Of a stretch of DNA of 64,000 bases, positions 41,982 to 64,000 are shown piece after piece. The notes under the pieces were generated by a model. It saw only the letters and a list, made by a program, of their open reading frames with translations. It did no database searches and was not told where the DNA came from. Positions within the stretch are counted from its first letter, which is position 1, and each line of letters begins with the position of its first letter. Origin of the DNA: an uncultured virus (IMG/VR IMGVR_UViG_3300042922_000886) (Duplodnaviria > Heunggongvirae > Uroviricota > Caudoviricetes); IMG/VR virus record IMGVR_UViG_3300042922_000886, positions 1 to 64,000 of that record. One strand, written 5' to 3'. The position numbers and the translations under genes were made by a program.

Positions 41982-42142
41982 TTTGTCCAAAGTGCAATAT
42001 AAAAATGAAACCTAAAACTGATAAAGAATTAAATGAAAAATATTATGATTGTGAGCAATGCGGATTTAATATTTTAAGATCCATTGCAAAAATGAAAATT
42101 CACAAGGAGACTGAAAGAATAATTAAATACAGTATTCAATAA
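41978..42142 (+). CDS. Small Zn-ribbon protein
   Basis: MICPKC...CEQCG; GGAGG RBS. Confidence 0.6.
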   Translation: MICPKCNIKMKPKTDKELNEKYYDCEQCGFNILRSIAKMKIHKETERIIKYSIQ

Positions 42143-42175
42143 AATGAAAGTTTGAATTCATAGGAGGGAAAATAA

Positions 42176-42436
42176 ATGACTTATGAAGAAGCCAAAGCAC
42201 ACAAACTAATATTAGAGAAAAAGAATAATACTGATTCTAGCGCGCTGCAATTCTTCGAAAGAAACGCTATGGGATTAATACCGGATCATGTTAGAGAAAC
42301 GCCAGAATGGAAAAGTGCTAAAAAGGCTTTTGATAGTTCTTTTGCCGAACTAAGAAACTTTAACGGATGGTTTGTTAAAATGTTTAAAAAAGAAATTTCT
42401 GCCGATAGAAATTATAAACGATACGTGAGCAAATAA
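42176..42436 (+). CDS. Hypothetical protein
   Basis: GGAGG RBS; MGLIPDHVR...W...F..LRNFN. Confidence 0.7.
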   Translation: MTYEEAKAHKLILEKKNNTDSSALQFFERNAMGLIPDHVRETPEWKSAKKAFDSSFAELRNFNGWFVKMFKKEISADRNYKRYVSK

Positions 42437-42466
42437 AATTTTAATTTTATCATCCAAAATAAAGGA

Positions 42467-42721
42467 GTGTTTACCATTTCGCTATCATACAAAATCAAAT
42501 TGTTGTCACAAGAAGAAAAAAGTAAATTTATTAGCATGTTAGATAAATGTTTAAAACTCCAATCTTTTTGGGTTAAATGTTTACTTGATACTAATAAAAC
42601 AAATGAACAATGTGACTTTGCATTAAATAAATTATATTCAATAGAGCAAGAGTTCAGAAACCGATTTAATTATTTGGGTTTGGATAGTTTCAGATTAAAC
42701 GATAATAAACTGTGCCTATAA
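42467..42721 (+). CDS. Hypothetical protein
   Basis: ORF bounded by repeat sites. Confidence 0.5.
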   Translation: MFTISLSYKIKLLSQEEKSKFISMLDKCLKLQSFWVKCLLDTNKTNEQCDFALNKLYSIEQEFRNRFNYLGLDSFRLNDNKLCL

Positions 42722-42987
42722 AATGTTACTTTTATTCCTTAAAGGATCGGCAGCCATGCCGGTTTTTGTTTGTGTCTAAGCGTCTATATTCGCTTTATCA
42801 TTGCTTATCCAGAATTTAAGTATATCCCTATGATTGAACCTAGAAACGTCTTACATTGGGTTTGTGGCGTTCTCAGCTCATATAAAATAAACATAAACAA
42901 TAGTAAATAAAACATTTGTTTATCTATTCTTAGTATGATAATATTAATTTTAGGGATTCTATTCGCCCTAACATTAAATAAAATGGA

Positions 42988-43638
42988 GTGGTTTTTATTA
43001 AAAAGTGTTCTGATTGTAATAAAGAAAAACCTTTAAATGAGTATTATTTCAACTTTATTAAAAAGAAAAATGGGGAAGTTAAAATTTCGTATCATCCCAG
43101 ATGTAGAGCGTGTTCGGTAATTCGTAATTCTGAATACCGAATAAAAAATGACAACAGAGAGAAAAGATTGGTGACACAAAAGCAATATAATAAACGTGAA
43201 GAAACTAAAGAATATCAAAATAAAATGAGGAGAGATGGATATAGAAAAGAATATTTAAGCGAGTATAGGAAAAGTAATCCTAATAAAATTAAAGAATATA
43301 ATAAGAAGTACTCAAACAAAAAGCATAAAATCACTATGAAAGAATGGGATGCCTGTCGTTTATATTTTGACTATAGGTGTGCATATTGCGGCAAAACTTG
43401 GGAGCAGAATAAAAAAGAAACAAGAAAAGATTTACATCAAGAACATGCATATGATGACGGTGCGAATGATCTAAGTAATTGTATTCCATCATGTCAAAGT
43501 TGCAACAGTTCAAAACGTGAAAATGATTATATAGAGTGGTATTCGATTAATAACCCTTTGTTTAAGCAGGAAAGAATAGAGAAAATAGATAAATGGTTAA
43601 TTGAGGAATATAAGAGATATATTGAATTCATCCAATAA
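42988..43638 (+). CDS. HNH endonuclease with N-terminal Zn finger
   Basis: CAYCG...QEH...GANDLSNCIPSCQSCNSSK. Confidence 0.85.
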   Translation: MVFIKKCSDCNKEKPLNEYYFNFIKKKNGEVKISYHPRCRACSVIRNSEYRIKNDNREKRLVTQKQYNKREETKEYQNKMRRDGYRKEYLSEYRKSNPNKIKEYNKKYSNKKHKITMKEWDACRLYFDYRCAYCGKTWEQNKKETRKDLHQEHAYDDGANDLSNCIPSCQSCNSSKRENDYIEWYSINNPLFKQERIEKIDKWLIEEYKRYIEFIQ

Positions 43639-43695
43639 ATTACTGTTTTCATTCACCTATTTAAACTATAATCACAGTAAAGGAGTGAGTACATT

Positions 43696-43914
43696 ATGAA
43701 TCAAATCACGAGTTTTTTAATCTATACGCAATACGGATTAGTTAATATCGTACATTCTCTAGAGGAATTGCAGCAGATTGAAAAAATAAATTGGATAAAG
43801 GTCGAGATATGGAAATTTGGAACACGTCAAAATGTTATCGAAAAATGGAACGGCTACGATAAACTAATGGAATATGCAATCTTTTATTTCAAATTGATTC
43901 AGCCTAACAAATGA
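43696..43914 (+). CDS. Hypothetical protein
   Basis: AAGGAG RBS. Confidence 0.55.
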   Translation: MNQITSFLIYTQYGLVNIVHSLEELQQIEKINWIKVEIWKFGTRQNVIEKWNGYDKLMEYAIFYFKLIQPNK

Positions 43915-44010
43915 AAACTGGATTTTATCAATATGAATAAAATAAATGTTTGTAATAAAATAAATGTATGATATAATGTATTTAGACGAAAGAAGAAAGG
44001 GGCGATGTAA

Positions 44011-44205
44011 ATGATTATCATACAAGGTGCATACACCATTATGGCAGCAAACATAGCAACGGGAGAAACTGTACAGCATGACATGATTCTTCCTCTAGAC
44101 GTAACCACTATTCAACTTAAAAGGTTTTGTCGTCAAAAGTTTACCCGATTTATTGAGATAACAGATTTTGAACCAATACAAATGGAATTGAGCGGTGATA
44201 GATGA
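44011..44205 (+). CDS. Hypothetical protein
   Basis: Follows the promoter at 43950-43977. Confidence 0.55.
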   Translation: MIIIQGAYTIMAANIATGETVQHDMILPLDVTTIQLKRFCRQKFTRFIEITDFEPIQMELSGDR

Positions 44206-44300
44206 TAAGTAGATTAACTCGTTCGAGCGAGTATAAAAAGGCCACTAGGCTCGAAGCGTTCCCCTGTAATGGGGAGGAGGCAAGATAAATAATACATAGT

Positions 44301-47102
44301 ATGGAGGCGTTCCAAATGCACTATATTTACAAACGGGAAGCAAAGGTAATGATTGCTCATGCACTCGAAAAAAACGGATGGAAAGTTTACGGCTATCACG
44401 AAGACCAATCCGACAGCATGACCGACTATTATCACCCGGCCTCGTGGGATGGAATCGCTACAAAGAACGGTCATACACTCGTTATTGATAATTCCAATAC
44501 ATACTATTCCGGTTATGAAGTAAAGAAATATAACTATTCTGCACGTAAAGCTGTTGTAAATAACAATAACAAGATTGAAAAACTTCGTGCACTCGCTAAT
44601 GATGAAGGAGCGACAGAAGGAGAAAAGGCGGCAGCACGTGAAGGAATCGAGCGCCTAACAGGTAAAGAAGCAAATGACGAACCTACATGGACAGTCATCG
44701 GCACTTACCCAACGTTTGCCCACGGTAATCCGGGTAAATGTTCATGGCACATAGAAAAAGACGGTCAAATATTGGCTAAAGGAACCGGCGTGTTTGCTTG
44801 CAATGAGTATGATTGGGAGGACAAGACAAAAACAGCAGCAGAACAGAAACAGGAAAAAGTTACAGATATTATTGCTCGATTTGAAAAGGTATTAGGGGAT
44901 TCTGATGCACTGCAAGCCGAAGTAATTAAAGTTGAAAAGAAAATTATTAAACATGTAGAAATTGAAAAGACAAGTGTAACAGAAAGTGAAATTACCGAAT
45001 GTTTTACTTTTATTATGAAGATTGATTACACGGGAGGTAATTGGAAGGGCAATAAATGGCAGATGGTTAGAAGATATGACAGCGAGAAAAGCGGAGCGAA
45101 CTTTATATTTCAGCGCTTAGGTAAGCGCGGCAAGCCTGTTAATGGTGATTGGTGGTTAAGTGTTGAAAAACTTAATAAGATTCTTTCCAAAGGACACATT
45201 GCAATTGTAGAAATGCAAGAGGTTACAGAATACGAAGAAAAGACCGTATTTAAGAAAACTGGACGCAAGCAGCCTCAAGCAAACTTTGACAATGACGCTT
45301 TACCGGGAGATGTTGAGGAGGAAACAACAGAAGAAACTACACAGGAGTCCGCACAAGCAAAGAAACAAACTGTAAAGCATGAAACAGTATCCGACAACGA
45401 TCAAGCGACTAAAAAGCAACTATGGGCGCTACACTGTGCAACAAAGTTAAACACGACTAACCTTTTTATTACAAAAACTAAAGCGTCCGAGTTAATCAGC
45501 AAATCGAAAGCCGGTACAGATATAACGGACGAAGTGAAAGCATTATTAGGTATTGTAGACGCTCCAGAAGTGAAAGAGGAGTCGATAAAAGTAAATGCAC
45601 AAGAGAGTCAACAGAACGACGAAGATCCTGCAGATTGGATCTTAGACTATGCCACAAGTATTATAATGGATGATAATACGGATTCGGTTAAGAAACCGGA
45701 AACGGAGGAAGAAAAAGCAGATTTTAGAAACAAAATAATTGAGTATGTGAAGTACAAAGGAGATTCTGTTACCCAATCTCTTATCAATCATTTTATCTCA
45801 TTAGGTTCTGGCGTAACCATCTTGTTAATTGTAGAGGCTTTGCAATCATTGAACGGTTCCCATAACAGCATAGACGAATTAAAGCAGGATGATTATACAT
45901 TCAATATCGATTCGTCATATCTGTACCACGATATACATTTCAAAGCATGGAACATGGAAATAGAACAAATTGAGCCGTATTTGAATGTTCGGGAAATACC
46001 ATTTTACATTGCTGGTGATAAGTTTATATGTAAAGGTTTGACTATTGAACAAGTACAATTTATCGAAGGTTTGAACGCATCCAATCAGGCGATATTGTTT
46101 TATGATGATAAATACAACGAAAAGCCCAATAACAGCACCAGAACAGAAGAGCTTGAGAATCAGAATGAAAACACAATTTTATCATCCGATAACATTATAT
46201 ATCATAACTTTACCAGCAACCAAACCAATAAAGAGGAGACTGAAAACGAATATATGATTGACGATGACTTTTTAAGCAAATTTGATAATGTCGAAGTAAC
46301 AAATGAGTCAAAGATTGCCGCTGATGACTTGGAATTCTGTAAGGAACAAGAAGACATTTATAAAAAACTTATTTCAACGTATAACAGTTTTAGTAGTCAA
46401 TTGCAGGACATTTCAAAATTAACTAAATCCATTAGTGAAAATTATACTTATACTAATAATGGATATACGCATAGACACGATACAGCATACTCTAGCAGCT
46501 TTTCACAAAGCGATATTAATGAAAAAATTAATAAAATGAAAGATCGCTTTATTAGCACAATCTGCTATTACTTTGAAAGAAAATACAATATAACAATTCA
46601 AGAAGAGAAAATACAGAAAAAATATAAAGAATCCGTAACACTAGAAAACATTTTAGATGAAATACATATACAGTTAGAAGGATTCAATTTCACTGAGAAA
46701 GCAGAAAAAGAAATCAAGGACAAATCAAAAGAAATTGTAAGAAATAGTGATAAAATTACAATTAAAAACAACAAATTAATAATTGATGCTTGGTTTTCTC
46801 GCCTTGATTCAATTTGGAAAGAGTATAGAACTAACGGAGAAAGACTTACCAATATTTTTAATGCTCTCCAGCACTTCGAAAATGGGCAAATAAAAGGCAA
46901 TGAGGAACTAACTAAGAAATATATTGGCTATGATAACGAACGCAGCCAGTCAAACTATGAACGTTATGAACCGACAACATTAAGTAAAGTTGCTTCGATC
47001 AAAATTTTGAAAAATGGAAAACTTGAAATTGAATTTAAATCAAATCAACAGGCTACACAATTTGCAAAGGTTTATTGCGGATACAATCAAAAATCAGCAT
47101 AA
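44301..47102 (+). CDS. Large multidomain (polyvalent-type) protein
   Basis: 933 aa; SDSMTDYYHPASW motif, DUF2786-like KIEKLRALANDEGATEGEKAAA, ATKKQLWAL motif, acidic linkers. Confidence 0.65.
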   Translation: MEAFQMHYIYKREAKVMIAHALEKNGWKVYGYHEDQSDSMTDYYHPASWDGIATKNGHTLVIDNSNTYYSGYEVKKYNYSARKAVVNNNNKIEKLRALANDEGATEGEKAAAREGIERLTGKEANDEPTWTVIGTYPTFAHGNPGKCSWHIEKDGQILAKGTGVFACNEYDWEDKTKTAAEQKQEKVTDIIARFEKVLGDSDALQAEVIKVEKKIIKHVEIEKTSVTESEITECFTFIMKIDYTGGNWKGNKWQMVRRYDSEKSGANFIFQRLGKRGKPVNGDWWLSVEKLNKILSKGHIAIVEMQEVTEYEEKTVFKKTGRKQPQANFDNDALPGDVEEETTEETTQESAQAKKQTVKHETVSDNDQATKKQLWALHCATKLNTTNLFITKTKASELISKSKAGTDITDEVKALLGIVDAPEVKEESIKVNAQESQQNDEDPADWILDYATSIIMDDNTDSVKKPETEEEKADFRNKIIEYVKYKGDSVTQSLINHFISLGSGVTILLIVEALQSLNGSHNSIDELKQDDYTFNIDSSYLYHDIHFKAWNMEIEQIEPYLNVREIPFYIAGDKFICKGLTIEQVQFIEGLNASNQAILFYDDKYNEKPNNSTRTEELENQNENTILSSDNIIYHNFTSNQTNKEETENEYMIDDDFLSKFDNVEVTNESKIAADDLEFCKEQEDIYKKLISTYNSFSSQLQDISKLTKSISENYTYTNNGYTHRHDTAYSSSFSQSDINEKINKMKDRFISTICYYFERKYNITIQEEKIQKKYKESVTLENILDEIHIQLEGFNFTEKAEKEIKDKSKEIVRNSDKITIKNNKLIIDAWFSRLDSIWKEYRTNGERLTNIFNALQHFENGQIKGNEELTKKYIGYDNERSQSNYERYEPTTLSKVASIKILKNGKLEIEFKSNQQATQFAKVYCGYNQKSA

Positions 47103-50183: not shown

Positions 50184-50410
50184 GGGAGAATCGAATATTC
50201 TCCCTAAAATAAAACTTGATTTTTATAAAGTAAAAGTATATAAATAAAATTAACAAGTAAACCAATTGCAGAAATTTTAAGGGAGGAATACAAAAATGTT
50301 CAAAAGCGGAAAAAGGATTAACGGCAAGTTGTATGTGCGAACCCATAAGGGAAATCTAATTGAATTATCGCTGCTAATTATATAAGTAAAAACATAATAT
50401 AAAAGGGGTT

Positions 50411-50809
50411 TTGTTTATAATGACTGAACAATTGGTAATGGACATAACAAATGATCTGAAAGCAACTGGCAACTTTAAACAGTACAACATTTCCGACATA
50501 AACAAGCACTATCTTGATTCGTTTCAAAAAGGAAAATACCCGGATCTTTTGACTGATAAAAAGCAACGAATGAGTTTTAACCAATACCGATGCACCGTGA
50601 ACAATTTTCTCGAATCGCTTTCTAAAGACGTTGCAATGGTTAAACGTGAGGATATTGATAACTTTCTTGCCCTGATCCCGAATGAGACGACAAGAGGCAA
50701 CAAAGCAGCTCACATAAAAAGCTTCCTTGTATATCTCATATCTAACAATGTTAAGAATTGCACGAGCAAGATAAGTCGGGACTTGTTGATAAAACTTTTG
50801 GAGATGTAG
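50411..50809 (+). CDS. Stand-alone integrase core-binding (SAM-like) domain protein
   Basis: YRCTVNNFL...VKREDIDNFL...NETTRGNKAAHIKSFLVYL; no catalytic domain. Confidence 0.6.
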   Translation: MFIMTEQLVMDITNDLKATGNFKQYNISDINKHYLDSFQKGKYPDLLTDKKQRMSFNQYRCTVNNFLESLSKDVAMVKREDIDNFLALIPNETTRGNKAAHIKSFLVYLISNNVKNCTSKISRDLLIKLLEM

Positions 50810-50877
50810 TAACTAAACATGATCCAATGAAATCAGAATTTTATTTGGAGTAAAAAATAAAAAATGGAGTGATAACA

Positions 50878-51024
50878 ATGAAAACAAAAGAAGAATTATT
50901 AAAGTATTATGAAAAGCAACTAGAAAAGGTAACTAACACCTACAAAGATGATCATAGAAAAGAAGAATACATCAAACAAGCAGAGGAAAATTTAGAGGCA
51001 GTAAAGAACGGGAGAGAGTGGTAA
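50878..51024 (+). CDS. Small hypothetical protein, 48 aa
   Basis: Manual translation MKTKEELLKYY...; GGAGTG RBS. Confidence 0.55.
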   Translation: MKTKEELLKYYEKQLEKVTNTYKDDHRKEEYIKQAEENLEAVKNGREW

Positions 51025-51030
51025 TTAATT

Positions 51031-52440
51031 ATGAAACTATACAAAGTTTACGAAGGTAGCATTGAAGCAATGAAAAATACGCCTTGCAAAGTTGTTATAT
51101 TTGCAGATGGGAATAACATTAAAATTTTTCAAAAAGCTTTTTATAGAAATAAATTAAGCAGACCAAACTCGATAAGAAATATAATTTTAGAAAAAACAAA
51201 AAATATCAATTCAATTGAAAGTGTTCTATATTCTTCGGGCTTCGTACCAAAGGAAGTACATTAAATGTTAATACAATACGAAAAAATTAAAGTCGGCGAT
51301 ACATTGATTTGTAATGTATTAAGTAATAATGGAATTACACAAATCGAACATATTGTAACTAGAATAGAATTTTTGGATATGTATGGAATCAGATCAGATA
51401 TTAATAAAGAAGTTGCTATTCTAGGCGCAAGTATCTTAGAACATAAAACGTCTAATAACACAACAAAATAATGCTTTCATCGTCACTTAGGAGCGAACCA
51501 CTATGCTAGACTCAAAAATTATTATGTTAATCCATAACAGAAAAGCAGAAATAAAGCAGGGGCAGAGACAACAATTAATTAAGCATGGGTTCGGAAAAAA
51601 TTCAAGGGATATTGATAAACAAGCAACGGATGCGTTTTTCAAAATGGCCGAAGAAAGCAAAGAAGACCTAAATGCTTATATTGAATTTGAAAAAGATTAT
51701 GTCGAGTGTAATCAAAGACTTATTCAGTTAAGACTTAGCAGCCAATGAAAGAAGTTTTCGCAGCCCAATGGGACATGTTATAATTGTCATAATATACATA
51801 GGCTAACACTTAACAGTCAAGGGGAATGAAACCAGTCTTTCATAGGATAACAGAGAGGATTGATAAAAATGGAAGAGGTAAAAGTAGGTTTCCAGCATCC
51901 TGATTATGGTATTCCATGTATCGCAATATGGGATGAGGATGGGGAAACATTGATGTTTGATATTGAAGATTACGAAGAAGCAGAGAAATGGAATCCCGCC
52001 GAAGACGTTGAAGCGGTTCGTCAATGGTGCATGAGGAACGCAATTAACTGTGACAGTGCAAATCGAGCAAATAATCACTTGGCATTCCTAGGAATTAAAG
52101 AGTGCATAGCCGATTAATCACCCTAAATAGGTTATAAAACAAGTATTTTATCTCATGAACAGGGGGATTGCCTGTGCGCTGCAAAGTGTCAAATGGGTAT
52201 GCAGAAATCGGAGATATTATTTCTGTTAGTGAGTATGGTAATGCGCAATATAAAGTCACTGAGTTTGGGGACTATGAAGGCGCGCCGCAAATTAGATATC
52301 GAAGGATTTTTCCTGAGACTGGTGAATTCTATCCAGATACAATTGGATCATGGATGAGCTTAGAAGATGCTTCAACGGAGTTAAGATTGGTTAGCCAAAA
52401 GAAAAAGTTTAGTCTTCGTAATTGGATTAGTGGCAGATGA
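51031..52440 (+). CDS. Five small hypothetical genes (51031-51264, 51265-51471, 51503-51748, 51860-52117, 52168-52440)
   Basis: Tandem ORFs, mostly with RBSs and separated by repeat sites. Confidence 0.55.
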
Positions 52441-52542
52441 AAACGGCATTTTATTTAGGATTTTTCTCTAATGAATTCTACATACACATTGTGGACTAGA
52501 TTAAGATGCCAAAGGATATAAAATAAAACCAATGATGTAACT

Positions 52543-52854: not shown

Positions 52855-53002
52855 AAGTTAATCACCTACAATGGAAGGTAAGATATCCTGTTATTTTATG
52901 AAGTGAGCATAATGATTGATTGGACACATCGACAAAAAAGTAATTAAATAAAAAGTATAAATAAAAAGTGTATTTCATGTGGTGAACTAGGAGTTGAAAT
53001 TG

Positions 53003-53706
53003 ATGAATAATTTGTTATGTAAATTGTCTGGACATTCACTTGATTTCTCAAAAGTTGTTGGACGACTATCAAAAACAAATTTAGTGAAATACAGATGTGT
53101 GCGATGCAACAAAATAGTTGTGTGTAGATGAAACGTATCTTTCATTATGGAGGAGTGATGAAAAATGAATCATTATAAATGGTTAGAGGAAAATCTTCCG
53201 ACATTTTTTGAAAAGATGGGAATAAATCCTGAATACTCTCACGGCGTCATAGCGGCTCATGGTGATAAATGTGAAATGGCAAGAACATTGTTTAAAAGAA
53301 ATGGATTAAAATACTGTCATGGGGTAGCCATCTATCTTTTACTAAGTTTTGAGCCATATGCTAATCAAGTACGACAAACAGTAAATGGTTGGATTGATCC
53401 ATTTGAGTGGATTGTTAATAACAAAGATAAATTCGAGCCTTACTTGTCTTAACCCAAATAACATTAATAAATAAAAAAATCTACATTTTATTCGATAACA
53501 GAGGAGGAGCAAACAACATGAAATCTTTGGTTGGGTATAATGTTAAAGTTGAAACATCCAGACAGAATTATAGCGGAGTTGTAGTTGGTCATTTATTCCA
53601 GTCCAGTAAAGTAGATGTGAAGATTACAGAAGTAATCAAAGGAAATAAGAAAGTAGGAAAAGTCGCTCGGTTCTCAATGGATCAAATTACAACGGTTTCG
53701 GCATAA
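53003..53706 (+). CDS. Three small genes (53003-53131 Cys-rich 42 aa; 53165-53452; 53518-53706)
   Basis: ORFs with GGAG RBSs, each bounded by repeat sites. Confidence 0.55.
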
Positions 53707-53739
53707 AATTTGCATTTTAACGGGAGGGAAGGGGTTAAA

Positions 53740-54093
53740 ATGATTAATCTGTATGTTGACGATCTTCGTGATTGTCCTGAAGGCTTCGTTGTTGCTCGTA
53801 CATATGAAGAAGCAATTAACCTTGTGGAAAATAACGAAATTGAAATCCTTACACTTGATCATGACCTTGGAGAAGACGCCAATGGCAAGGAACTTCCCAA
53901 TGGATATGACTTCGTTAAATGGTTCTGTGAAAACGGTAAACGAGCAAACAAAATTTATCTTCATACCGACAACCCTGTGGGTCGCAATAATATGTATGAA
54001 ACGCTTCTCGCTGCTCAAAGAAGAGGTTTTATTGATGAAGATATTGAAATTTATCATTATCCGATTACGGCAAACAAATATTCTGGGCAATGA
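53740..54093 (+). CDS. Cyclic-phosphate-processing receiver-domain protein (second copy)
   Basis: YVDDLRDCP...LTLDHDLG...LHTDNPVGR. Confidence 0.8.
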   Translation: MINLYVDDLRDCPEGFVVARTYEEAINLVENNEIEILTLDHDLGEDANGKELPNGYDFVKWFCENGKRANKIYLHTDNPVGRNNMYETLLAAQRRGFIDEDIEIYHYPITANKYSGQ

Positions 54094-54122
54094 AATATCT
54101 ATTTCATTAGGAGGACTAACGA

Positions 54123-55317
54123 ATGGTTGAAAAGAAAGATTTCGAATTATTCACTAAAACATATCTTGCAGCAGGAGAAATGTTTGATTATGACGGGGAT
54201 TCTTATGTTACGATTTCTATTCTGGAAGTAAGAAGCAATTGGGAAGGAAAATGCATCATCACAGCACTTGTTGTTAAGCAATAAAATGTCCATTTTAATT
54301 GGAGGAGTAAACGAAGATGAGATATCCTACTTTATACGATAAGGATCAGATTGAATCAATTGTGTATCGACTTGTGGGCTACTGGAACAACGATAACTAT
54401 GTACAATTTGTTAAACAATCAAATGAACTTTATGAGAAATACGGAGAGTTTCAAGCAGATGAGTTGATGAAAAAGATTAAGCAACAAATAAAATAATTGT
54501 TTTATTAACTAAAAGGAGTGAAAATAAATGAATATATGTAATGTGTATATAAATGTGTCTACTTCATTGATTGGAACATGTGATGTGGAAGTATTTTATC
54601 ATGATCCAGTATGTGATGAATGGGATATAGATGAGGATTTAACAAAGAAAAATTTGAATTCGAGAACTGAAGCTGATTTATACATCAATGAACTTTGGCA
54701 GCAAGACGACATAACTATCCGAATTCAGGATGTTAGATATTTTTAAAAGGAGGAGCAAGAAATGAGCCAACTTTACCTATCTAAACCAAGAGGCGATAAC
54801 AAACATCGTCTGTGGTTCAAATCCGAAGATCCTAAGAAGGTGAGCGAGTTTAAAGTGGCATGCTTCATGAAAATGGATATTGTTAAAGTCCAACCAATTC
54901 ACCATACGGATTCGAAGGATTTTCAAGTATTCGAATTTTGGAATGGAACATTCGATGAAATCGTTACAGAGTGTCAGAAGGTTGCTCGTATTCTAAATAT
55001 AGAATTAATATAGGTATATCTTTGACCTTTAATTATGCTTATGCTGATTTTAATATAAATGCATCGGAAGTATCTGAGTCATAAAAGGAGAAGTTACTTT
55101 CTGGGCGGATAAAATCCAAACAGGAGGCTTGGTTTGTATGTGGTTCAAGAAGAAAGAGGAGAGTTATCTTATTGATTTAGTCAAAGAACGAGATGGGTAT
55201 GTTGTGCGTAATCCATCGAACGGAGTAACAGTAAGATGCACAGAGAAATTTCTAGAATCATGGAAAGCAAGAGGTTTTGAAGTGATTTACGCAGGGAAAA
55301 TAAAGCTTATAGAATGA
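54123..55317 (+). CDS. Five small hypothetical genes (54123-54284, 54317-54496, 54528-54746, 54762-55013, 55129-55317)
   Basis: ORFs with GGAG RBSs; terminator GAGGC-GAAA-GCCTC-T at about 55323. Confidence 0.55.
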
Positions 55318-55422
55318 CGGTGGAGGCGAAAGCCTCTTTTTTGTTGTAATATTCTCAATGTGCGATTTTAAGAAATAAAAGAGCCGTTTTATTTACCGGC
55401 TCCTAGAAGTGTGTCCATATAT

Positions 55423-55794
55423 TTATACCGCTCTCTTGACGTCATTGTTAACAATCTCTTCAATATTGAAAATCAAAACTTTACTATACTCTTTTTGATA
55501 ATACTCGAGTTGCTTCATCATTTTTTCTTCTGAGGTGTGTACTTCTCCAAACACGTATCCAATTGTATTACCGGCTCTAGCAATTAACCAGTTTTCTACT
55601 TGAACATGATCCCCGTATACTATTCCCCATAGATCTAAAATTCTTTCGAAACCAATTGCAAACTTTTTACTTGTCACTATCTTTGCCTCCAATTTGTATT
55701 GCATATTGTTAGTATACATTAAGAACAAGTGTTCTGGTTGAATGTAAATAATGTCCGAAATGTCGTATGTGTACGATGAAAAATGTGGTTTCAT
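55423..55794 (-). CDS. Hypothetical protein (start uncertain)
   Basis: Reverse-oriented ORF. Confidence 0.45.
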   Translation of the reverse strand: MKPHFSSYTYDISDIIYIQPEHLFLMYTNNMQYKLEAKIVTSKKFAIGFERILDLWGIVYGDHVQVENWLIARAGNTIGYVFGEVHTSEEKMMKQLEYYQKEYSKVLIFNIEEIVNNDVKRAV

Positions 55795-55884: not shown

Positions 55885-56460
55885 TTGAACAGAATGGCTT
55901 GGGAGTTTGTGAAAACAAACATTGTAGGGTATGGTCGGCTGCTTGATCCAAAGGGAAAGGAATATAATGTTCAATACAATAATGAAGGAAATATAGAAGT
56001 TACAACGATTAAGCGTAATACAATAGTAAAAATTCCTCAGAAGGTACATAGAATGATTACCGAAAAAGTCTATAATACATGAGTGGATAAAAGGGTTATT
56101 TCAATTGGTTAATAAAGTTGGTTTGAATAAATTATTGGAGGCGTTTATTGTAATATGATAACTAACAATCGTAACGAGATAGTGCAAAAATCCTTTCAAT
56201 TGCAAGTTAGACTTTCTAAAATGGCTAAAGAGGATAATCAGAATGAATTATTAAAAGCTTTACATAGCAATCATAACCAATTAAGACTTGATTATCGAAT
56301 GAAAAGAATTTCATTTGAACAATTTCACGATGGATTTTTGTTAGTTAGCAATACTCTTGGTGAGATAGACAGGATTAGCACGGAGATACTAATGGATGCA
56401 GTTGAAAAGTTAGGACAGATGTCTTTATTGCATGGACGTCAAAATGTGGGGATAAAATGA
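55885..56460 (+). CDS. Two hypothetical genes (55885-56082, 56155-56460)
   Basis: Promoter -10 TATAAT at about 55855; GGAGG RBSs. Confidence 0.55.
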
Positions 56461-56497
56461 CTGTTTCATCATCTTCAATGCTTCAGGAGGATTACAT

Positions 56498-57363: not shown

Positions 57364-57855
57364 ATGAACTTTCTTGAACAGTTGGCGAATGAGTGGTACT
57401 CGTATACGGATCATTTTGTTCGCAATAATATTAAGTTTGATAAGCGTCCAAATGGAGGCTACAATGGAGAAATTGATGTAATAGCATTTAATTATAAGGA
57501 AAATCAACTAATTCACATTGAAGCTTCTATGGATGCTAATCAAAATGAAAAACGAGTTATTGGCTTCAATAAGAAATTCCGTTTAACACTAGGGGAATAC
57601 AACGAACTGTTGAAAACCGAGGCTACGAATATAAAGAAAATTGCAATAGTAGGCATATCGAAAACAGCAATTGATTTTGGAAACGGAATTCAGCATATTA
57701 CTGTACCTGATTTTGTAAACAATATAACGAATAGAATTAAGAACATTGATCCAATGAAAGCAGCAATTCCAGAAGGCTTCCCGTTGATGAGAGCAATCCA
57801 ATTTTCAAATTATTATATAAATAAAACAAAGGATGAAATTATCGTTAGGCAATGA
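57364..57855 (+). CDS. PD-(D/E)XK nuclease-like protein
   Basis: LEQLANEWY...GEIDVIAF...IHIEASMD. Confidence 0.55.
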   Translation: MNFLEQLANEWYSYTDHFVRNNIKFDKRPNGGYNGEIDVIAFNYKENQLIHIEASMDANQNEKRVIGFNKKFRLTLGEYNELLKTEATNIKKIAIVGISKTAIDFGNGIQHITVPDFVNNITNRIKNIDPMKAAIPEGFPLMRAIQFSNYYINKTKDEIIVRQ

Positions 57856-57888
57856 AATGGTTCTTTTAATGGGAGGTTGAATTGAATA

Positions 57889-59067: not shown

Positions 59068-59139
59068 CATTTACACTATATAATAGGTACATGGATATAA
59101 ATAAATGATAATAATACTATTATACAAGGAGTCGATATT

Positions 59140-59553
59140 ATGGCGGTTGCAATGATGGAAAGAGCATCAATTAATATTCATCAAACTAACTTTACTGCAC
59201 CAAAAACAATCCATAGAGGCGATATCTATTTTGCGGATTTAGGCGATGGAAGAGGATCAATTCAAGGAGGAGTTCGGCCAGTACTTATTATTCAAAATGA
59301 TATTGGAAATCGATTCAGCCCTACCGTTATCATCGCGCCTATTACAGCTCAAATTCAAAAAGCGAAGCTGCCGACTCATGTAGTGCTATCGGCAATAAAG
59401 TATGGACTCGAAAGAGATTCTGTTGTACTGTTTGAGCAAATACAGACAATAAATAAGTCCGAACTTGGTGATAAGATTGCGCATATCAGTAGCCGAGACA
59501 TGAAGGAGATCATTCAAAGTGCAATGCAGATTAGTATTGGTTTGGTCCACTAA
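59140..59553 (+). CDS. mazF: MazF/PemK endoribonuclease toxin (NdoA-like), orphan
   Basis: RGDIYFADL...QGGVRPVLIIQNDIGNRFSPTVIIAPITAQIQKAKLPTHV. Confidence 0.93.
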   Translation: MAVAMMERASINIHQTNFTAPKTIHRGDIYFADLGDGRGSIQGGVRPVLIIQNDIGNRFSPTVIIAPITAQIQKAKLPTHVVLSAIKYGLERDSVVLFEQIQTINKSELGDKIAHISSRDMKEIIQSAMQISIGLVH

Positions 59554-59730: not shown

Positions 59731-60503
59731 GTGGTGAAGAAGATGAACACAATAATTGAACTTAAGAATGTGTGGATCAATAAGTCATCAACTAAAGAAG
59801 ATTTTTATTTCTGGAGTGCTCGGTATTTAAGTGGAAAGTACGGTGAGGATTATCAGAAAGCAGCGAGAGAAATTGGTGAAATGATTGTAGAACTTCAACT
59901 TACTCGAATCCAATCAAACAAGATTTGGGCAAAAGCGAAGGCGATGCATTCAAGATGAAATAATCCTTTCAATTGGGAGATGATGAAACATGGCAAAGAA
60001 ACCGAAATGCAAAGTGTGTGATCGTGAAATTGACACTAGAAAATACTCGCATTATAAATTCGGCCATGACTTCGTGTGTTATGTTGAAGCCACAGAGGAT
60101 TGCGTTGTTCAATACACTGGACAACATTTCAGAGAAAAGGGCGATGGATCTGGTCGTTTGAGTGGTGATGATTATGAGTAGGATAACAATCAAGGAATAT
60201 AGAGCGTCCAAAGGCGGAGATTACGATTGTTATAAGTTATCTAACGGTCAAAAGTATTGGTTATGGCTAAAGGCTCCCTTTAGAGGTGGGGATGCGGCAC
60301 TTGTACATATAGTTACGGACGACGACAAAGAGGTTGGGACTGTGTTCCTAGAGAAAAACATCAGCAGCGTGAGGATGGGCTTTGAGGGAACAGGTAAATT
60401 AATTGAGGTTCCGATAACAGTAATGCAAGATGTTAGGCCGAATAAGAAGTATTACTTTGATAAGATTGTAAGAAACCTATTAATAAAGGAGATGAATCAT
60501 TGA
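59731..60503 (+). CDS. Three hypothetical genes (59731-59958, 59990-60181, 60162-60503)
   Basis: Promoter TTGACT-17-TATAAT at 59647-59675; coupled ORFs. Confidence 0.55.
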
Positions 60504-60925
60504 GCACACTTGAACAAGCAATAATCGTCGCTGCCGATGGGCATCAAGGTCAATATGATAAAGCCGGACTACCGTACATATTCCATCCATTACGAGTAAT
60601 GATGGCTTTAACCACCGAAGAAGAACAGATCGTTGGGGTATTGCACGATGTTCTAGAAGATACGGTTATTACAGAAGATAGGTTAAGGTACTTCGGATTT
60701 TCTGAATTGATTATCGAGGCTGTGAAAAGCGTGACAAGACGTGAAGGAGAAAGTTATTCAGTATTTATTCGTCGGTGTAAGGAAAATGAAATCGGTGTAA
60801 AAGTTAAGATCGTGGATCTGAAGGATAATATGAACATCTCTAGGATTCCCAATCCGTCTCAAGAAGACTTCAGACGGATTGAAAAATACAAAAAGGCACT
60901 AGCAATATTGCTTGACGAAGAATGA
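60500..60925 (+). CDS. HD-domain phosphohydrolase (RelA/SpoT hydrolase/Mesh1-like)
   Basis: HQGQYDKAGLPYIFHP...VLHDVLEDT...VKIVDLKDN. Confidence 0.85.
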   Translation: MSTLEQAIIVAADGHQGQYDKAGLPYIFHPLRVMMALTTEEEQIVGVLHDVLEDTVITEDRLRYFGFSELIIEAVKSVTRREGESYSVFIRRCKENEIGVKVKIVDLKDNMNISRIPNPSQEDFRRIEKYKKALAILLDEE

Positions 60926-60962
60926 AACGAATCTTTTATTGAGAGAGGATGAATAAAAAAAA

Positions 60963-61205
60963 ATGAAACTGAAATTCGTGCAAACTCCACATAATTCCAT
61001 TCGGGTATGGATGCTATTCGATGAGGATCATAAAGATGTAATGATAAAATCGAGAGAATTTAACTTTTTCCAATTCATCTGAATATGGGGTGGATTTGAC
61101 AAAGTGGAAAGAGACATGTTTTCGTGGGAATTACCATTGTCGATAAAAGATTATATCAAGAAAAAATTCGCCCATTACCCAGATTGCCAAATCAATATAT
61201 TGTGA
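60963..61205 (+). pseudogene. Small gene with internal TGA
   Basis: MKLKFVQ...FQFI*IWGGFD...NIL; stop at 61080-61082. Confidence 0.45.
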
Positions 61206-61251
61206 TTAATATAAAAATGTGAGTTCAATTGAGAATGGGTGAGCTGGACGA

Positions 61252-61665
61252 ATGAACGCTAAGGGGTATCGTCATACGTTGGATGATTTAATTAAGGCAG
61301 AAGTTAAAAAAAGAAAACAAAACAACGTTAGCAATGCTTCTGTGCAAGGAGTTATGCAGGATTTGGCTGATTACTGCAAAATAACAACTGATGCAATTTA
61401 TAATTATAGAAAATATAAAGCCATTCCTCTATTAGCTATAGCTTACAGAATGGCTGAGTATTTAGGAGTAACTGTTTTGGAATTGTACCAAATCGAAAAT
61501 TACGAATCAGCTTTAGGTAAAAGAAATGAACATGGAATAGGTAGAGGGAGGAAAAAAGAAGATTATAATAAGAATTGCAAAGAATGTGGTGAAATTGGTT
61601 ATGCGAAAGGTTTTTGTTTGAAGCACTATCAACAGCACAGGAGATTCAAATTAAATAAATTATGA
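61252..61665 (+). CDS. XRE-like HTH protein with C-terminal Zn finger
   Basis: DLADYC...PLLAIAYRMAEYLGV; CKECG..AKGFCLKHY. Confidence 0.7.
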   Translation: MNAKGYRHTLDDLIKAEVKKRKQNNVSNASVQGVMQDLADYCKITTDAIYNYRKYKAIPLLAIAYRMAEYLGVTVLELYQIENYESALGKRNEHGIGRGRKKEDYNKNCKECGEIGYAKGFCLKHYQQHRRFKLNKL

Positions 61666-61714
61666 TTCAAGTTGCGTCTATTATCAAAATATTTTATGGG
61701 GAGATGGGCTTACA

Positions 61715-61909
61715 ATGACAACACTAAAATCGAGCCGTGGAAAAGCAACTTTGAACAACGAAGAAATGGAAGAAGTATAGGAACAGATTAATGGTGAAGT
61801 CTGGAAGTTGATTTCCGCCACTAACCTCAAAGATATTGGAAGGCTGACAGACAATAATGGTTTCTACAAGTATGTCGAACAATTTAAAAATACACAAAAA
61901 CAATTCTAA
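61715..61909 (+). pseudogene. Small gene with internal TAG
   Basis: MTTLKSS...EEV*EQINGEVW...KQF; stop at 61778-61780. Confidence 0.4.
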
Positions 61910-61927
61910 TAGAAAAAATAGAAAGGT

Positions 61928-62349
61928 GTGGTTATTTTGCTTCTAAAAACCTATGTGAAAGTAAATGATAAATACTATGCAGGAGAATTATCAGATACAT
62001 ATAAATCAAGTTTTTCAGGAGTTGGTTTTCACGACTATAAAAACTGCGAATTGTCTGTTTTGAAATTTGTTGACAATGAAAACAATGCTTACGTTTGTGA
62101 AGGTTTACGTAATCTAAATAGTATTATTGAAAGAATTATGCAAAGAGTGAAAGACAATGCGATACAGTTACAAAGAATCGAAATCATCAATGTCGGAAGT
62201 AATGTGTCATGATGGATAATAAATTTAAAATTGTCTGTTGTAAATGTGGAAGTGAAAGTCGTTGGTGGTATATCGAAAATGACTACACTTTGAGTCTTAA
62301 ATGTAATAATGAAGATTGTGGAAACCAGAAAAATTATGAGGAAGATTAA
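61928..62349 (+). CDS. Two hypothetical genes (61928-62212; 62209-62349 Cys-rich)
   Basis: Coupled ORFs. Confidence 0.5.
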
Positions 62350-62399
62350 AAGCAAATGAAAGGATTCTTGTATTGGATAAAATAAGAAAGGGCGGTTAA

Positions 62400-63101
62400 A
62401 TGACAATAAGTTCTAAGCCTGTAAGTGCAAATATTTTATATAAAGTGGTTGATGAAAAAATATATAAGTTATGCTCAATATGTGAAGAATATAAGCCAAT
62501 GAATGAGGAGAATTATAGTAAAAATAAAACCAATAAACGTGATGGCTTTCATCCTTACTGTAAACCTTGCAACAGTAGAAAATCTAGGCAATGGGAAATT
62601 GATAATCCTGAAAAATATAAAGCGTTAAATAAAACAAAATTGCCTAGTAAGAATCCAGTTAGATTGGAACGCTTACGAACATATAGAAAGACTGAAAAAT
62701 CTAAAGATTATATGACTGATTGGCGCAATAACAATAAAGATAAAATAAAAACATACAATGCATATAGATTGCAACACAAGACTCATGAGATAAGTCATAA
62801 AGAGTGGGAATATTGCAAAACTTATTTCAATAACAGATGTGCTTATTGTGGTCTACACTACAATGATCATTACCGAATGTACGCAGGTGAACCCCAAAAA
62901 ATTGATTTACACAAAGAACACGTTGACCACTTTGGTAGTAATAAAATTGATAATTGCGTCCCATCTTGTTTGTCTTGTAATTCAAAGAAACACAATAAAG
63001 AATTAGTTAGTTGGTATAATGAAAAAAATGTAAATTTTACGCAATATCGAATCCAAAGAATATATTTATGGCTTGCGGAAGACTATAAGAAAATCCAATA
63101 A
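62400..63101 (+). CDS. HNH endonuclease with N-terminal Zn finger (paralog of 42988)
   Basis: CAYCG...HKEHVDHFGSNKIDNCVPSCLSCNSKK. Confidence 0.85.
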   Translation: MTISSKPVSANILYKVVDEKIYKLCSICEEYKPMNEENYSKNKTNKRDGFHPYCKPCNSRKSRQWEIDNPEKYKALNKTKLPSKNPVRLERLRTYRKTEKSKDYMTDWRNNNKDKIKTYNAYRLQHKTHEISHKEWEYCKTYFNNRCAYCGLHYNDHYRMYAGEPQKIDLHKEHVDHFGSNKIDNCVPSCLSCNSKKHNKELVSWYNEKNVNFTQYRIQRIYLWLAEDYKKIQ

Positions 63102-63133
63102 AAGAAGTATTTTAAGGGGTGATGAAACGAAAA

Positions 63134-64000
63134 ATGAAAAACGCAAAAGAAATGAATCCCGCTGAACTTATTGATGAATTAGAGACACTTACATTGAAAC
63201 GATGGAATGCAAACTACACAGAAGGCTATAGACTTGATAATCGGTTAAGAGAACTTCGAATTGAAATGATGGAGAGAATGAAATAAGTCATTTATTTGGA
63301 AAGGTGAGTTATAAATATGAATGTTTACAAAAGCCTTGGAGAAATTGTGAGTGATTATAATGCGGGTGTCTACAAGAGTACGCTGCCTTATCCTACCGGC
63401 AGATTTAGAGAGGATCATGTCTTTGATGAAGACCAATCAATAAAATGGAATAAAGATGAGGTTGTAAGAAGAAATAGCGAATACGACCAGAAAAGAAATG
63501 AGTACCGTGCTGATAACAATAGATTAGATAAGTTACTCAAAGATGATGTAACTTACAACTTGATTTATGATTTTGACTTGAATCAAGAACAGGCCGAATA
63601 TACTTATGACATTGCATATACTGAAAAGCATTCTAGTATGACTGACGTATTCTATTATGCGGTTGAATTAGCAGAGTATTTTGTGAAAATGAAAGTACTT
63701 GAAAGATGATAAAAGAGCGATTTTAATGGGAGGTGTGTTAGAGGATATGGATTGCCCGATTGATTTTGATTATAACAGATGCTCTTCAAAGGACTTCGGT
63801 TTGCAGTGTGATACATGTGTTCATGCTCCAGAGTTTCAAATTTATCAGCACGGTCTAATGTGGGTTGTATCAGACGATAAATACATTGCAACCGGCAAGA
63901 CAAGAGATGGAGCAATTGACAACTTCATTGAACTATTAAATAAAGAGTATGCTCGGTTGAAGCAAAAGGTCGATCAGGATATTCAAGAATCAAGAACGAA
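63134..64000 (+). CDS. Three hypothetical genes (63134-63286, 63317-63709, 63747 to window end)
   Basis: ORFs separated by repeat sites. Confidence 0.55.

Follow-up and report, generated by a model that had tools for sequence, protein, structure and literature searches.

This large SPbeta-like phage has short palindromes at the borders of many of its small genes. What are they, and what part do they play in the mosaic structure of its genome? The window, that is, the whole stretch of DNA that was analysed, comprises 64,000 nucleotides of the 121,816-bp genome. An earlier note on this DNA had described an integron-like array of gene cassettes between positions 42139 and 63726, punctuated by ATRAAA-N6-TTTYAT sites. 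A motif scan found 20 exact copies of this palindrome in the whole window, against a mean of 0.30 in 100 dinucleotide shuffles of the window (the top shuffle had two); the note's random model had predicted less than one. Copies with at most one mismatch number 37, against 6.93 expected and 15 in the top shuffle. The motif array is thus confirmed as real and far more abundant than chance would allow, although the note's tallies of 18 exact and 12 one-mismatch copies for 42139-63726 changed to 16 and 15 in the scan of that range; it had numbered the sites by the stop codon, one base to the right of the site start. In the complete genome, 53 exact copies have a spacer of 6 bp, compared with 0 to 3 for each other spacer from 0 to 20, and the reversed order TTTYAT-Nk-ATRAAA is present in 0 to 5 copies. 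In a logo of the 49 exact sites beyond 36 kb, information is found only in the arms and in a flanking A and T, the A preceding the left arm in 36 sites and the T following the right arm in 26. We found no paper that describes an ATRAAA-N6-TTTYAT element. The array between 42 and 64 kb includes the following sites, none of which is assigned to a strand.

42144..42161, one-mismatch site directly past ORF 41978-42142
42433..42450, exact site ATAAAA-TTTTAA-TTTTAT; left arm contains the stop of ORF 42176-42436
42718..42735, exact site; left arm contains the stop of a 94-codon open frame
43635..43652, one-mismatch site; left arm contains the stop of ORF 43168-43638
43911..43928, exact site; left arm contains the stop of ORF 43696-43914
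46165..46182, exact match away from a junction, within the 928-aa ORF 44316-47102; it may be a coding copy or due to chance
50209..50226, exact site 27 nt past the ORF end at 50183
50827..50844, exact site between ORF 50420-50809 and ORF 50878-51024
51463..51480, one-mismatch site; centre begins with the stop of ORF 51265-51471
51826..51843, exact site preceding ORF 51869-52117
52134..52151, exact site 18 nt past the end of ORF 51869-52117
52437..52454, exact site; left arm contains the stop of a 93-codon open frame
52961..52978, exact site with mixed arms (ATAAAA..TTTCAT), preceding ORF 53003-53131
53128..53145, exact site; left arm contains the stop of ORF 53003-53131, next start 19 nt past the right arm
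53474..53491, one-mismatch site flanked by ORF 53165-53452 and ORF 53518-53706
53703..53720, one-mismatch site; left arm contains the stop of ORF 53518-53706
54090..54107, exact site; left arm contains the stop of ORF 53740-54093
54281..54298, one-mismatch site; left arm contains the stop of ORF 54123-54284
54488..54505, exact site; centre begins with the stop of ORF 54317-54496
55375..55392, exact site adjoining a G+C-rich inverted repeat; flanked by ORF 55138-55317 (plus strand) and ORF 55423-55677 (minus strand)
56087..56104, one-mismatch site flanked by ORF 55894-56082 and ORF 56155-56460
56452..56469, exact site with mixed arms; centre begins with the stop of ORF 56155-56460
57852..57869, one-mismatch site, first mosaic joint against the closely related genome G001; hybrid, centre TGGTTC
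59955..59972, one-mismatch site preceding ORF 59990-60181
60922..60939, exact site; left arm contains the stop of ORF 60500-60925
62356..62373, one-mismatch site flanked by ORF 62209-62349 and ORF 62400-63101
63098..63115, one-mismatch site, mosaic joint where G001 homology starts; centre GAAGTA is the same, left arm differs
63278..63295, one-mismatch site; centre begins with the stop of ORF 63122-63286
63709..63726, one-mismatch site directly past ORF 63317-63709

As the earlier note had observed, the sites occupy gene junctions, between the upstream stop codon, which may form part of the left arm or start the centre, and the next ribosome-binding site. Of the 49 exact sites in the logo, 42 fall within -40 to +18 of an ORF end (ORFs of at least 40 codons), 18 have a left arm whose TRA serves as the stop codon, and 38 are followed within 120 nt by a start codon with a ribosome-binding site, typically about 20 nt past the right arm. 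By rough gene calls, 146 junctions beyond 41 kb join genes on the same strand, and 66 of them have a site with at most one mismatch; called genes contain 15 of the 93 sites of this class. The placement relative to stop codons and ribosome-binding sites is constant on both gene strands, as would suit an RNA element of polycistronic early transcripts, that is, a hairpin or protein-binding site for processing or translation coupling. We nevertheless regard such an element as very unlikely. The R and Y positions of the left and right arms are independent (A..T in 14 of the 49 exact sites, A..C in 16, G..T in nine and G..C in ten; Fisher p = 1.0), so an RNA stem would contain an A-C mismatch in 16 sites. 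When six sites were folded, the arms were paired in the best fold only at 54090..54107, the z-scores of the folds ranged from -1.1 to +0.5, and an Rfam search matched no family at the sites. In addition, the two arms differ in sequence as RNA, and a two-fold symmetric reader fits DNA better. The lack of covariation, which the note had also pointed out, and of a stable RNA hairpin supports the view, favoured in the note as well, that the sites are read as double-stranded DNA and not as an RNA stem. Independence of the arms is also what is expected if the two arms of a site come from different modules.

Comparison with G001 showed that related phages have swapped unrelated genes exactly at these sites. 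The two genomes are 98-99.9% identical in the flanks of a 28-kb mosaic zone, and 12 of the 13 pairs of replaced segments have no tblastx similarity. Homology-block boundaries number 34, and 21 of them are no more than 5 bp from a site in one or the other genome, against a chance expectation of 2.5 (maximum 9 in 5000 random draws); about a third of the boundaries fall away from sites. G001 is the single comparator for this lineage; a variant in the metagenome X3 shares its boundaries and is not independent. In a lineage of gut phages, 12 of 60 boundaries are at sites, compared with about one expected. The note had suggested testing whether breakpoints between relatives are related to the sites; the coincidence in both lineages supports the view that the sites bound exchangeable gene modules. 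Between SPbeta and phi3T, only two of 13 boundaries are found at a site edge.

The joints can be placed more precisely. At 14 site boundaries between the present genome and G001 (blocks of at least 96% identity; one row indel-corrected from alignments), the two genomes have the same 6-bp centre in 13 cases and differ by a single base of the centre in the other, while the arm adjoining the variable segment differs in seven and the far arm in two. Only at one boundary (genome position 79512) does the centre go with the variable side. The gut phages G045 and G010 provided a replicate in which sites were picked by flank homology alone: of 18 G045 sites with just one flank homologous in G010, 12 have a G010 site at the projected place, and the centre is identical in 11 of these (six of seven with the left flank conserved, all five with the right), whereas the near arm differs in six and the far arm in one. 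In both comparisons the joints map to the border of the 6-bp centre. Centre-matched site pairs among G045, G051 and G010 number 20, 39 and 19, against 1.4-1.9 by chance, and most form colinear chains, that is, the centres recur in the same order. Short exact matches beyond alignable blocks are common in these genomes, so the retention of a site amid unalignable flanks is not special by itself.

The sites thus look, from sequence comparison, like built-in joints for gene exchange. Our best explanation, which we put forward tentatively and rate as somewhat short of probable, is that the palindromes are recombination sites that are read by a recombinase and exchange DNA only if the centres of the two partner sites match. 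Tyrosine recombinases cut at both borders of an overlap of 6-8 bp, and exchange is completed only if the overlaps match. The arms of all joints are generic, (A)ATRAAA on one side and the mirror sequence on the other, whereas the 6-bp centre that they enclose is particular to each joint. In an encounter of related phages, DNA would be exchanged at the joint, with the crossover where the centre adjoins the arm that faces the incoming gene, so that the left arm would belong to the left gene and the right arm to the right gene, while the centre would persist as a position label. Genes would be swapped slot by slot among sites with equal centres, most likely by a site-specific enzyme of the tyrosine-recombinase type. 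This reading is supported by the inverted arms of 6-7 bp, the strict 6-bp spacing and the concentration of information in the arms, as well as by the module boundaries, the joint positions and the retained centres described above. It also draws support from a clean 592-bp insertion of G001 at 57852..57869, between two sites with the near-identical centres TGGTTA and TGGTTC, and from one site (genome about 86193) at which the centre is duplicated in tandem.

The main alternative, which we consider a serious possibility although a rather doubtful one, is that the palindrome is maintained as the target of a dimeric DNA-binding protein, from phage or host, with an architectural, silencing or transcription-linked role, and has been reused passively as a joint. 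The 18-bp sites would then be the sole sequence common to unrelated junctions, and rare short-homology or microhomology events at them would yield viable phages. The double-stranded geometry is typical of operators of dimeric helix-turn-helix or ribbon-helix-helix proteins, several proteins of these types and an HU-like protein are encoded in the genome, and so is a Sak4-like annealing protein. Repeated ribosome-binding-site and start regions, which are short conserved junction sequences without the palindrome, also serve as joints between some relatives. Furthermore, many relatives with Bacilli and Clostridia hosts have the motif at lower density, as would be expected of a family-wide functional site. 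However, the motif is wholly absent from close relatives whose genes are laid out in the same way. If either arm were used passively as microhomology, about half of the events would be expected to lose the centre, but it stayed with the conserved flank in 13 of 14 joints with G001 and in 11 of 12 between G045 and G010, on both sides, and the frequency of change in the near arm is roughly that expected if this arm always moved with the incoming gene. Against the recombinase reading, an 18-bp common sequence could also serve rare ordinary short-homology recombination.

Movement of the near arm with the swapped gene, together with stationary centres, would also be consistent with transposon-like units, in which each gene is bounded by terminal inverted repeats TTTYAT ... 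ATRAAA and the centres are duplicated 6-bp targets; the G001 insertion between TGGTTA and TGGTTC resembles such a duplication. Yet neighbouring sites almost never have equal centres (none of 92 adjacent pairs in the present genome, one of 123 in G001 and none in SPbeta, G045 or G051), and the strict 6-bp spacing would demand that insertion always took place exactly between two units. No transposase was detected in a PHROG scan of the window proteins or in a Pfam scan of the proteins beyond the window. We therefore consider units of this kind highly improbable.

If the palindromes are recombination sites, which enzyme reads them? The window encodes two proteins of the tyrosine recombinase family, one of which is adjacent to a site in the late minus-strand region:

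10363..10380, exact site, late minus-strand region, immediately past the 3' end of the Xer-like recombinase gene
10384..11367, minus strand, 327-aa tyrosine recombinase with a SAM-like N-terminal domain and a catalytic domain; candidate reader
12372..12389, exact site separating minus-strand late genes
15808..15825, exact site separating minus-strand late genes
25286..25303, exact site; arm contains the stop of the minus-strand ORF 25300-25623
35674..36714, plus strand, 346-aa tyrosine recombinase-family gene; candidate reader or integrase

The Arg, His-x-x-Arg, His and Tyr positions of the first recombinase align with those of an archaeal XerC-like structure, and the presence in the window of an enzyme with aligned catalytic positions adds to the support for site-specific exchange. 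Its gene is located within the structural gene block, like yomM in SPbeta, whereas 35674..36714 lies at the changeover from the minus-strand to the plus-strand gene block. Candidates for the enzyme of our best explanation are the conserved Xer-like recombinase (10384-11367) or the host XerCD. Of 48 related records, 45 contain tyrosine recombinase genes irrespective of motif density, so no gene tracks the motif, nor did a tblastn phyletic profile point to a particular reader. The assembled contigs showed neither circles nor rearranged junctions.

Another protein with a tyrosine-recombinase fold, the master repressor MrpR (YopR/SroF), binds a repeated element (SPBRE) at about ten places in SPbeta (PMC10516654), and a homologue is encoded at 87765-88760 of this genome. 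SPBRE, like the palindrome, is a repeated intergenic element of this phage family, and its reader has a recombinase fold; the palindromes might be operators of this repressor, as the note had allowed for repressors in general. For the known MrpR/SroF, this is excluded by both sequence and phyletic spread, and we give it almost no credence. Upstream of the ten MrpR-peak genes of SPbeta we found a different common sequence, roughly ACAAATACAAAWAATATGTATA, which overlaps about ten promoters; the 26-bp phi3T SroF box printed in bioRxiv 10.1101/2025.11.27.690993 also differs from the palindrome. The MrpR family PF22823 is present in only two of the 48 related records, and G045, G051 and G010 carry the palindrome without it. 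Moreover, about 100 sites within operons are unlike a promoter operator.

Among described systems, the promoter-early stem-loop (PeSL) cassettes of T4-type phages (Arbiol et al. 2010, PMC2839356; also PMC4122927) are similar in that short conserved elements are repeated among small non-essential phage genes and close relatives show insertions, deletions and replacements at the elements. PeSL elements consist of a sigma-70 promoter and a terminator hairpin and recombine as ordinary homology. The present element, in contrast, has 18 bp, no promoter and no stable hairpin, and it has a position-specific centre with the joint at the centre border. The pdif sites of Acinetobacter plasmids have 11-bp XerC and XerD arms, whereas here just 6-7 bp per arm are informative, the arms are alike and the replicon is a Firmicutes phage. 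The dif modules of these plasmids (PMC6449649, PMC13141974) nevertheless have a comparable arrangement, with gene modules bounded by many short inverted-arm sites with a 6-bp spacer, moved by host XerC/XerD and shuffled among replicons.

Integrons share with this locus the arrays of mostly single same-strand genes, the recombination-type sites and the stop codons that reach into the site. Their attC sites are imperfect palindromes of 57-141 bp, recombined as folded single strands, each moving with its own gene. The sites described here have 18 bp and no attC-type structure, their centre stays with whichever flank is conserved, and no attI/Pc platform was found. The earlier reading is thus partly supported: the double-stranded DNA site and the module borders stand, but the integron-like label does not fit in detail. 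Another parallel is with the engineered heterospecific lox and FRT sites of recombinase-mediated cassette exchange, which have 13-bp arms and 8-bp spacers. There, too, identical arms are combined with differing spacers, and exchange confined to sites with the same spacer would lead to slot-by-slot replacement with the spacers preserved; this is the pattern observed in these phages.

The palindrome ATRAAA-N6-TTTYAT is present in 20 exact copies in the window, against 0.30 expected, and in 53 exact copies in the whole genome; with at most one mismatch allowed, the window has 37 copies against 6.9 expected. Spacing is the decisive control for the reality of this motif: in the whole genome, the 53 copies found at a spacer of 6 bases compare with 0–3 copies at each other spacer from 0 to 20, and the reversed arm order (TTTYAT followed by ATRAAA) occurs 0–5 times. 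In SPbeta (NC_001884), 14 exact copies have the 6-base spacer, with 0–3 at other spacers, and the looser form TRAAA-N6-TTTYA occurs 36 times. Sequence information is confined to the arms (6–7 bp each, 18–20 bp in total) and one flanking base per side, and the centre is free in sequence, with a G+C content of about 40%, i.e. less AT-rich than the genome. Beyond 36 kb, 42 of the 49 exact sites lie within −40 to +18 of the end of a long ORF and 18 of the 49 carry a stop codon inside the left arm, the next start following about 20 nt past the right arm; four sites among minus-strand genes are placed equivalently on that strand. By rough gene calls, a site is present at 66 of 146 same-strand junctions (45%), and the junctions that lack one are mainly overlapping or very short. 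The earlier note had claimed a motif repeated above chance, located at gene junctions where the upstream stop codon usually falls in the left arm or starts the core, and composed of arms that do not co-vary. All three claims are borne out, the last by the arm combinations (A..T 14, A..C 16, G..T 9, G..C 10), in which R and Y are independent (p = 1.0).

That independence also bears on the possibility that the palindrome acts as an RNA element, which we regard as very improbable. The arms pair with each other in the best fold at only one of six sites, with z-scores from −1.1 to +0.5, and no Rfam family matched at the sites, so that an RNA element is not credible. An RNA switch, in which the right arm would pair with the next start codon, was rejected as well, as the flanks show no consistent ATGAAA start.

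Most of the 50 related IMG/VR records counted have few or no copies of the motif, but it is clear in G002, G045, G010, G051 and G007. Low-G+C prophages of Lachnospiraceae, Acutalibacteraceae, Ruminococcus and Lysinibacillus carry it as well, at 4–8 copies per 22 kb. Megablast and blastn searches of the window against a phage collection, which may lack near records, returned no match, and in metagenome and genome collections the nearest relative at the probe protein was no closer than 74%. When the MrpR homologue was used as a query in IMG/VR, the sole match was G001, a 183-kb record. The window forms the opening 64 kb of a single 121,816-bp contig, which aligns end to end with G001 and is probably incomplete, because its whole length covers only bases 3298–127044 of that record. 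Identity to G001 is 98–99.9% over 1–57.8 kb and 86.2–121.8 kb, with a patchwork in between. The main features of the genome, in which L001, L002 and L003 denote pieces beyond the window, are as follows.

Bases 1–35 kb, minus strand: structural and late genes (tape measure, Dit, virion proteins, PhoH-like, HU-like)
Within bases 1–35 kb, minus strand: 915-aa protein with phage relatives that carry the annotation RNA polymerase
From about 36 kb onward, plus strand: more than 150 mostly small genes
Outside the window: MrpR homologue, DndB-like, AgrB- and LytTR-like, methylases, Gad1, Sak4-type AAA_24 protein, primase
Genome 87765–90692 (L002:3765–6692): MrpR homologue, then AgrB-like protein and LytTR-domain protein

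Among the genes scanned there was no arbitrium AimR-type match, and the AgrB-like and LytTR-domain genes beside the MrpR homologue hint at a different peptide-signalling module. The Gad1 (Gabija anti-defence) homologue is encoded at L003:4865–5755 (PF25705, E = 6e-115), and the early region contains a MazF-like gene (window 59140–59553) and several HNH endonucleases. A match to the Pistol ribozyme (RF02679, window 44217–44282, plus strand; 55.4 bits versus a gathering score of 34.5) is positioned just upstream of a 928-aa ORF (44316–47102).

Comparison with G001 shows that most module boundaries coincide with the palindromes. When only sites of our genome are counted, 17 of 34 homology-block boundaries are no more than 5 bp from the corresponding outer site edge, and with sites of either genome the count is 21; random placement gave a mean of 2.5 and at most 9 in 5000 draws. 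Segments that replace each other show no tblastx similarity in 12 of 13 pairs and differ in length, so unrelated genes occupy the same slots, and the identity of the retained blocks, which ranges from 82% to 99.9%, indicates a separate history for each slot. Four boundaries stem from two insertions in G001 that are unrelated to the motif. One, of 1360 bp, lies in the late region at window 29664–29671 and is probably a mobile element; the other, of 1719 bp, lies at genome 68859–68866 (L001:4859–4866) inside a highly conserved 679-aa gene and has the appearance of an intron, an intein or a homing element. At both insertions the flanking homology blocks overlap by 8 bases. The 679-aa protein belongs to no Pfam family, yet is about 65% identical across phages of Bacilli and Clostridia. 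This own-lineage boundary result rests on one comparator, G001: over genome 64–84 kb, contigs of three soil metagenomes were also compared, and the joints of the high-depth variant in one of them (X3) are mostly at sites, yet they coincide with those of G001 and were counted as non-independent.

Some coincidence of boundaries and sites is to be expected, because 45% of junctions have a site and selection favours intact genes; the base-level pattern of the joints is not expected from such selection. In alignments with G001, homology covers the entire site and ends at its outer edge, whichever flank is conserved. We examined the 14 site boundaries located in blocks of at least 96% identity, with one row adjusted for a one-base shift. 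The centre is identical in 13 of them and differs by one base in the remaining one. Differences in the near arm, which faces the swapped segment, occur at 7 of the boundaries, and differences in the far arm at 2. A near arm that differs in about half of the cases fits its arrival with the incoming gene every time, because R and Y occur in ratios of roughly 60:40 and 50:50. Near-arm changes combined with kept centres place the putative joint at the transition from the near arm's R/Y position to the centre; the centre is on the variable side at one boundary only (genome 79512). Membership of the two arms in different modules would also account for their lack of co-variation.

The same pattern was seen in the gut-phage lineage represented by G045, G051 and G010. 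In blocks of at least 90% identity, 12 of 60 boundaries are at sites, with about 1 expected (one direction per pair), and over all directions the count is 27 of 141 against 2.1 expected; the joints show the same edge pattern as in the comparison with G001. The check on breakpoints between related phages that the earlier note had called for was thus positive in both lineages. In the more distant pair G045 and G051, 4 of 38 boundaries are at sites (random mean 0.5). Of 18 G045 sites with one flank homologous in G010, 12 have a G010 site at the projected place, and these share an identical centre in 11 cases, whereas their near arms differ in 6 cases and their far arms in 1; by the same approach, G051 and G010 have identical centres in 3 of 5. 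Pairs of sites matched by centre among the three gut genomes number 20, 39 and 19 versus 1.4–1.9 expected, and their order is mostly the same. Centre matches of our genome with G045, G051 or SPbeta are at chance level only. SPbeta and phi3T are a weak replicate, with just 2 of 13 boundaries at a site edge. The preprint of Dragos et al. reports one non-homologous phi3Ts–SPbeta joint 'following yosA', which is near SPbeta site 116414. A conserved site between unalignable flanks is by itself weak evidence, because short stretches of isolated identity abound between such diverged genomes: a (poorly designed) control with exact 14-mers gave 1442 isolated matches, of which 17 contained the motif.

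Recombination by Cre, Flp, Xer and lambda Int needs equal overlap regions in the two sites. Generic inverted arms set strictly 6 bp apart, joints at the edge of this spacer, and a spacer that is kept when either side is replaced form the pattern expected from a tyrosine recombinase acting on equal overlaps. Judged from these genome comparisons, core-matching site-specific exchange at the palindromes has a little less than an even chance of being the correct explanation. A tyrosine recombinase would recombine sites with equal overlap regions, and related phages would trade genes slot by slot. Alternatively, the site may be retained for another function and reused passively as a joint, an explanation to which we give appreciable but lower weight. 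Rare ordinary recombination could take place within 18 bp of identical sequence, and repeats of the ribosome-binding site and start that lack the palindrome act as joints too. Such repeats flank small insertions in the gut lineage, and they show that any conserved junction sequence can act as a joint. In our genome, a 13-base ribosome-binding-site/start linker, GGGGAGGATACCC followed by A or G and ATG, is present in four copies at genome ~118750–120130 (L003:14750–16130), where genes abut without palindromes, and represents another type of conserved junction sequence. Passive use of an arm as microhomology, however, should lose the centre about half the time, whereas the centre is in fact kept. 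Terminal-repeat units with target duplication are as improbable an explanation as an RNA element: one insertion in G001 looks like a target duplication (centres TGGTTA and TGGTTC), but adjacent sites share a centre in none of 92 pairs, which rejects target duplication as a general rule.

Core-matching exchange would require an enzyme that reads the sites, for which there are three candidates.

Window 10384–11367: Xer-like recombinase of 327 aa, encoded in the structural block; an archaeal XerC-like structure has aligned counterparts of its Arg, His-x-x-Arg, His and Tyr positions
Window 35674–36714: second recombinase
Host: XerCD

The phage has two PF00589 proteins, and a site abuts the stop codon of the gene for the 327-aa protein. 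None of the candidates tracks the motif in the surveys made: PF00589 is present in 45 of 48 related records, without discrimination by motif, and a tblastn phyletic profile of all called proteins against five motif-rich and three motif-poor genomes singled out no protein. A fuller proposal is that SPbeta-like phages possess a natural system of addressable cassette exchange, with about 100 sites per genome, generic arms and position-specific 6-bp centres, read by the conserved Xer-like recombinase (YomM family, encoded among structural genes) or by host XerCD. Co-infecting phages and resident prophages would then trade accessory genes slot by slot with gene order kept. Phages would thereby possess an equivalent of integrons and dif modules, operating like recombinase-mediated cassette exchange; in this complete form we give the proposal clearly less than an even chance.

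Comparison with known elements indicates that the palindrome fails the tested defining features of SPBRE, attC, pdif and the promoter and terminator of PeSL, and that it fits the geometry of a recombinase core site. The least probable explanation, which we hardly entertain, is that it is an operator of MrpR (also YopR or SroF). According to a 2023 study (PMC10516654), SPBRE, put forward as an operator in 1999, is bound by this recombinase-fold repressor. The regions upstream of ten MrpR-peak genes share roughly ACAAATACAAAWAATATGTATA, which overlaps the promoter and is not ATRAAA-N6-TTTYAT, and the palindrome is near only two of the ten (yorE and yorM). Only 2 of 48 related records (G001 and SPbeta) carry the catalytic-domain family of MrpR, PF22823, and G045, G051 and G010 have the palindrome without it. 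A k-mer search detected no SPBRE-like operator in our genome, the top repeats being coding A-tracts and the ribosome-binding-site/start linker. The SroF box of phi3T (2025 preprint, bioRxiv 10.1101/2025.11.27.690993) differs from the palindrome, as do the two 'palindrome' features annotated in the SPbeta record. In that record (L006:13663–13700 and L006:32746–32790), two copies of ATRAAA-N6-TTTYAT, one ahead of mtbP and one ahead of yotJ, have an A-tract box, TAAAAATAAAAT, about 5 bases or less beyond their end; this box resembles that of phi3T.

The attC sites of integrons are imperfect palindromes of 57–141 bp with paired R''/L''–L'/R' boxes, and each travels with one cassette, that of the upstream gene. 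Here the information is limited to two arms of 6–7 bp, 18–20 bp overall, and the centre stays with the conserved flank, whether upstream or downstream. The "integron-like" designation of the earlier note does not fit in detail: the sites delimit exchangeable gene modules, but they have neither attC structure nor a centre tied to one cassette. In pdif sites, 11-bp XerC and XerD arms flank a 6-bp spacer; the spacer length is shared, but the palindrome has at most 7 informative bp per arm and its arms are undifferentiated. Its strict 6-bp spacer and symmetric arms match the core-type sites of tyrosine recombinases (inverted arms around a 6–8 bp overlap), and the natural joints, located by genome comparison rather than by cleavage, map between the near-arm R/Y position and the centre, at the border of the would-be overlap region. 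The nearest described case is the PeSL of T4-type phages, where insertions, deletions and replacements between close relatives likewise occur at the element; PeSL consists of a sigma-70-type promoter and a terminator stem-loop, whereas the palindromes have neither a −35/−10 pattern around them nor a stable stem-loop. Closest in mechanism are dif modules, integrons and heterospecific lox sites. We found no published description of this palindrome; the SPBRE paper of Lazarevic (1999) and the supplement of Dragos et al. might bear on the point, and the text of the Kohm preprint mentions neither 'palindrom' nor 'motif'.

Phage genomes are mosaics, and the events that make their joints are mostly unknown. 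'Linker' sequences between modules are an old idea for which we know of few concrete examples, the PeSLs of T4-type phages being one. The joints described here are resolved to a single base and recur in two lineages, and because the sites also occur in the laboratory model SPbeta, the question is open to standard genetic methods in Bacillus subtilis. Should the sites be read by an enzyme, they would represent a new cassette system through which large temperate phages of Firmicutes pass on accessory genes, anti-defence and toxin-antitoxin genes among them, and a possible source of orthogonal recombination sites; if no enzyme reads them, they are still a family-wide DNA signal.

Two individual sites stand out. 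At genome ~86193 (L002:2190–2215), the centre is duplicated in tandem (TTGGCA TTGGCA) where G001 has a single copy, which could reflect slippage or a filled-in 6-bp stagger. A small gene at genome 81990–82196 is preceded by a site with the centre CGATGA (L001:17956–18196), and in G001 (~86860) that same gene is followed by a site-like sequence that contains these six bases, a single case in which the arrangement looks permuted, as if via a circle.
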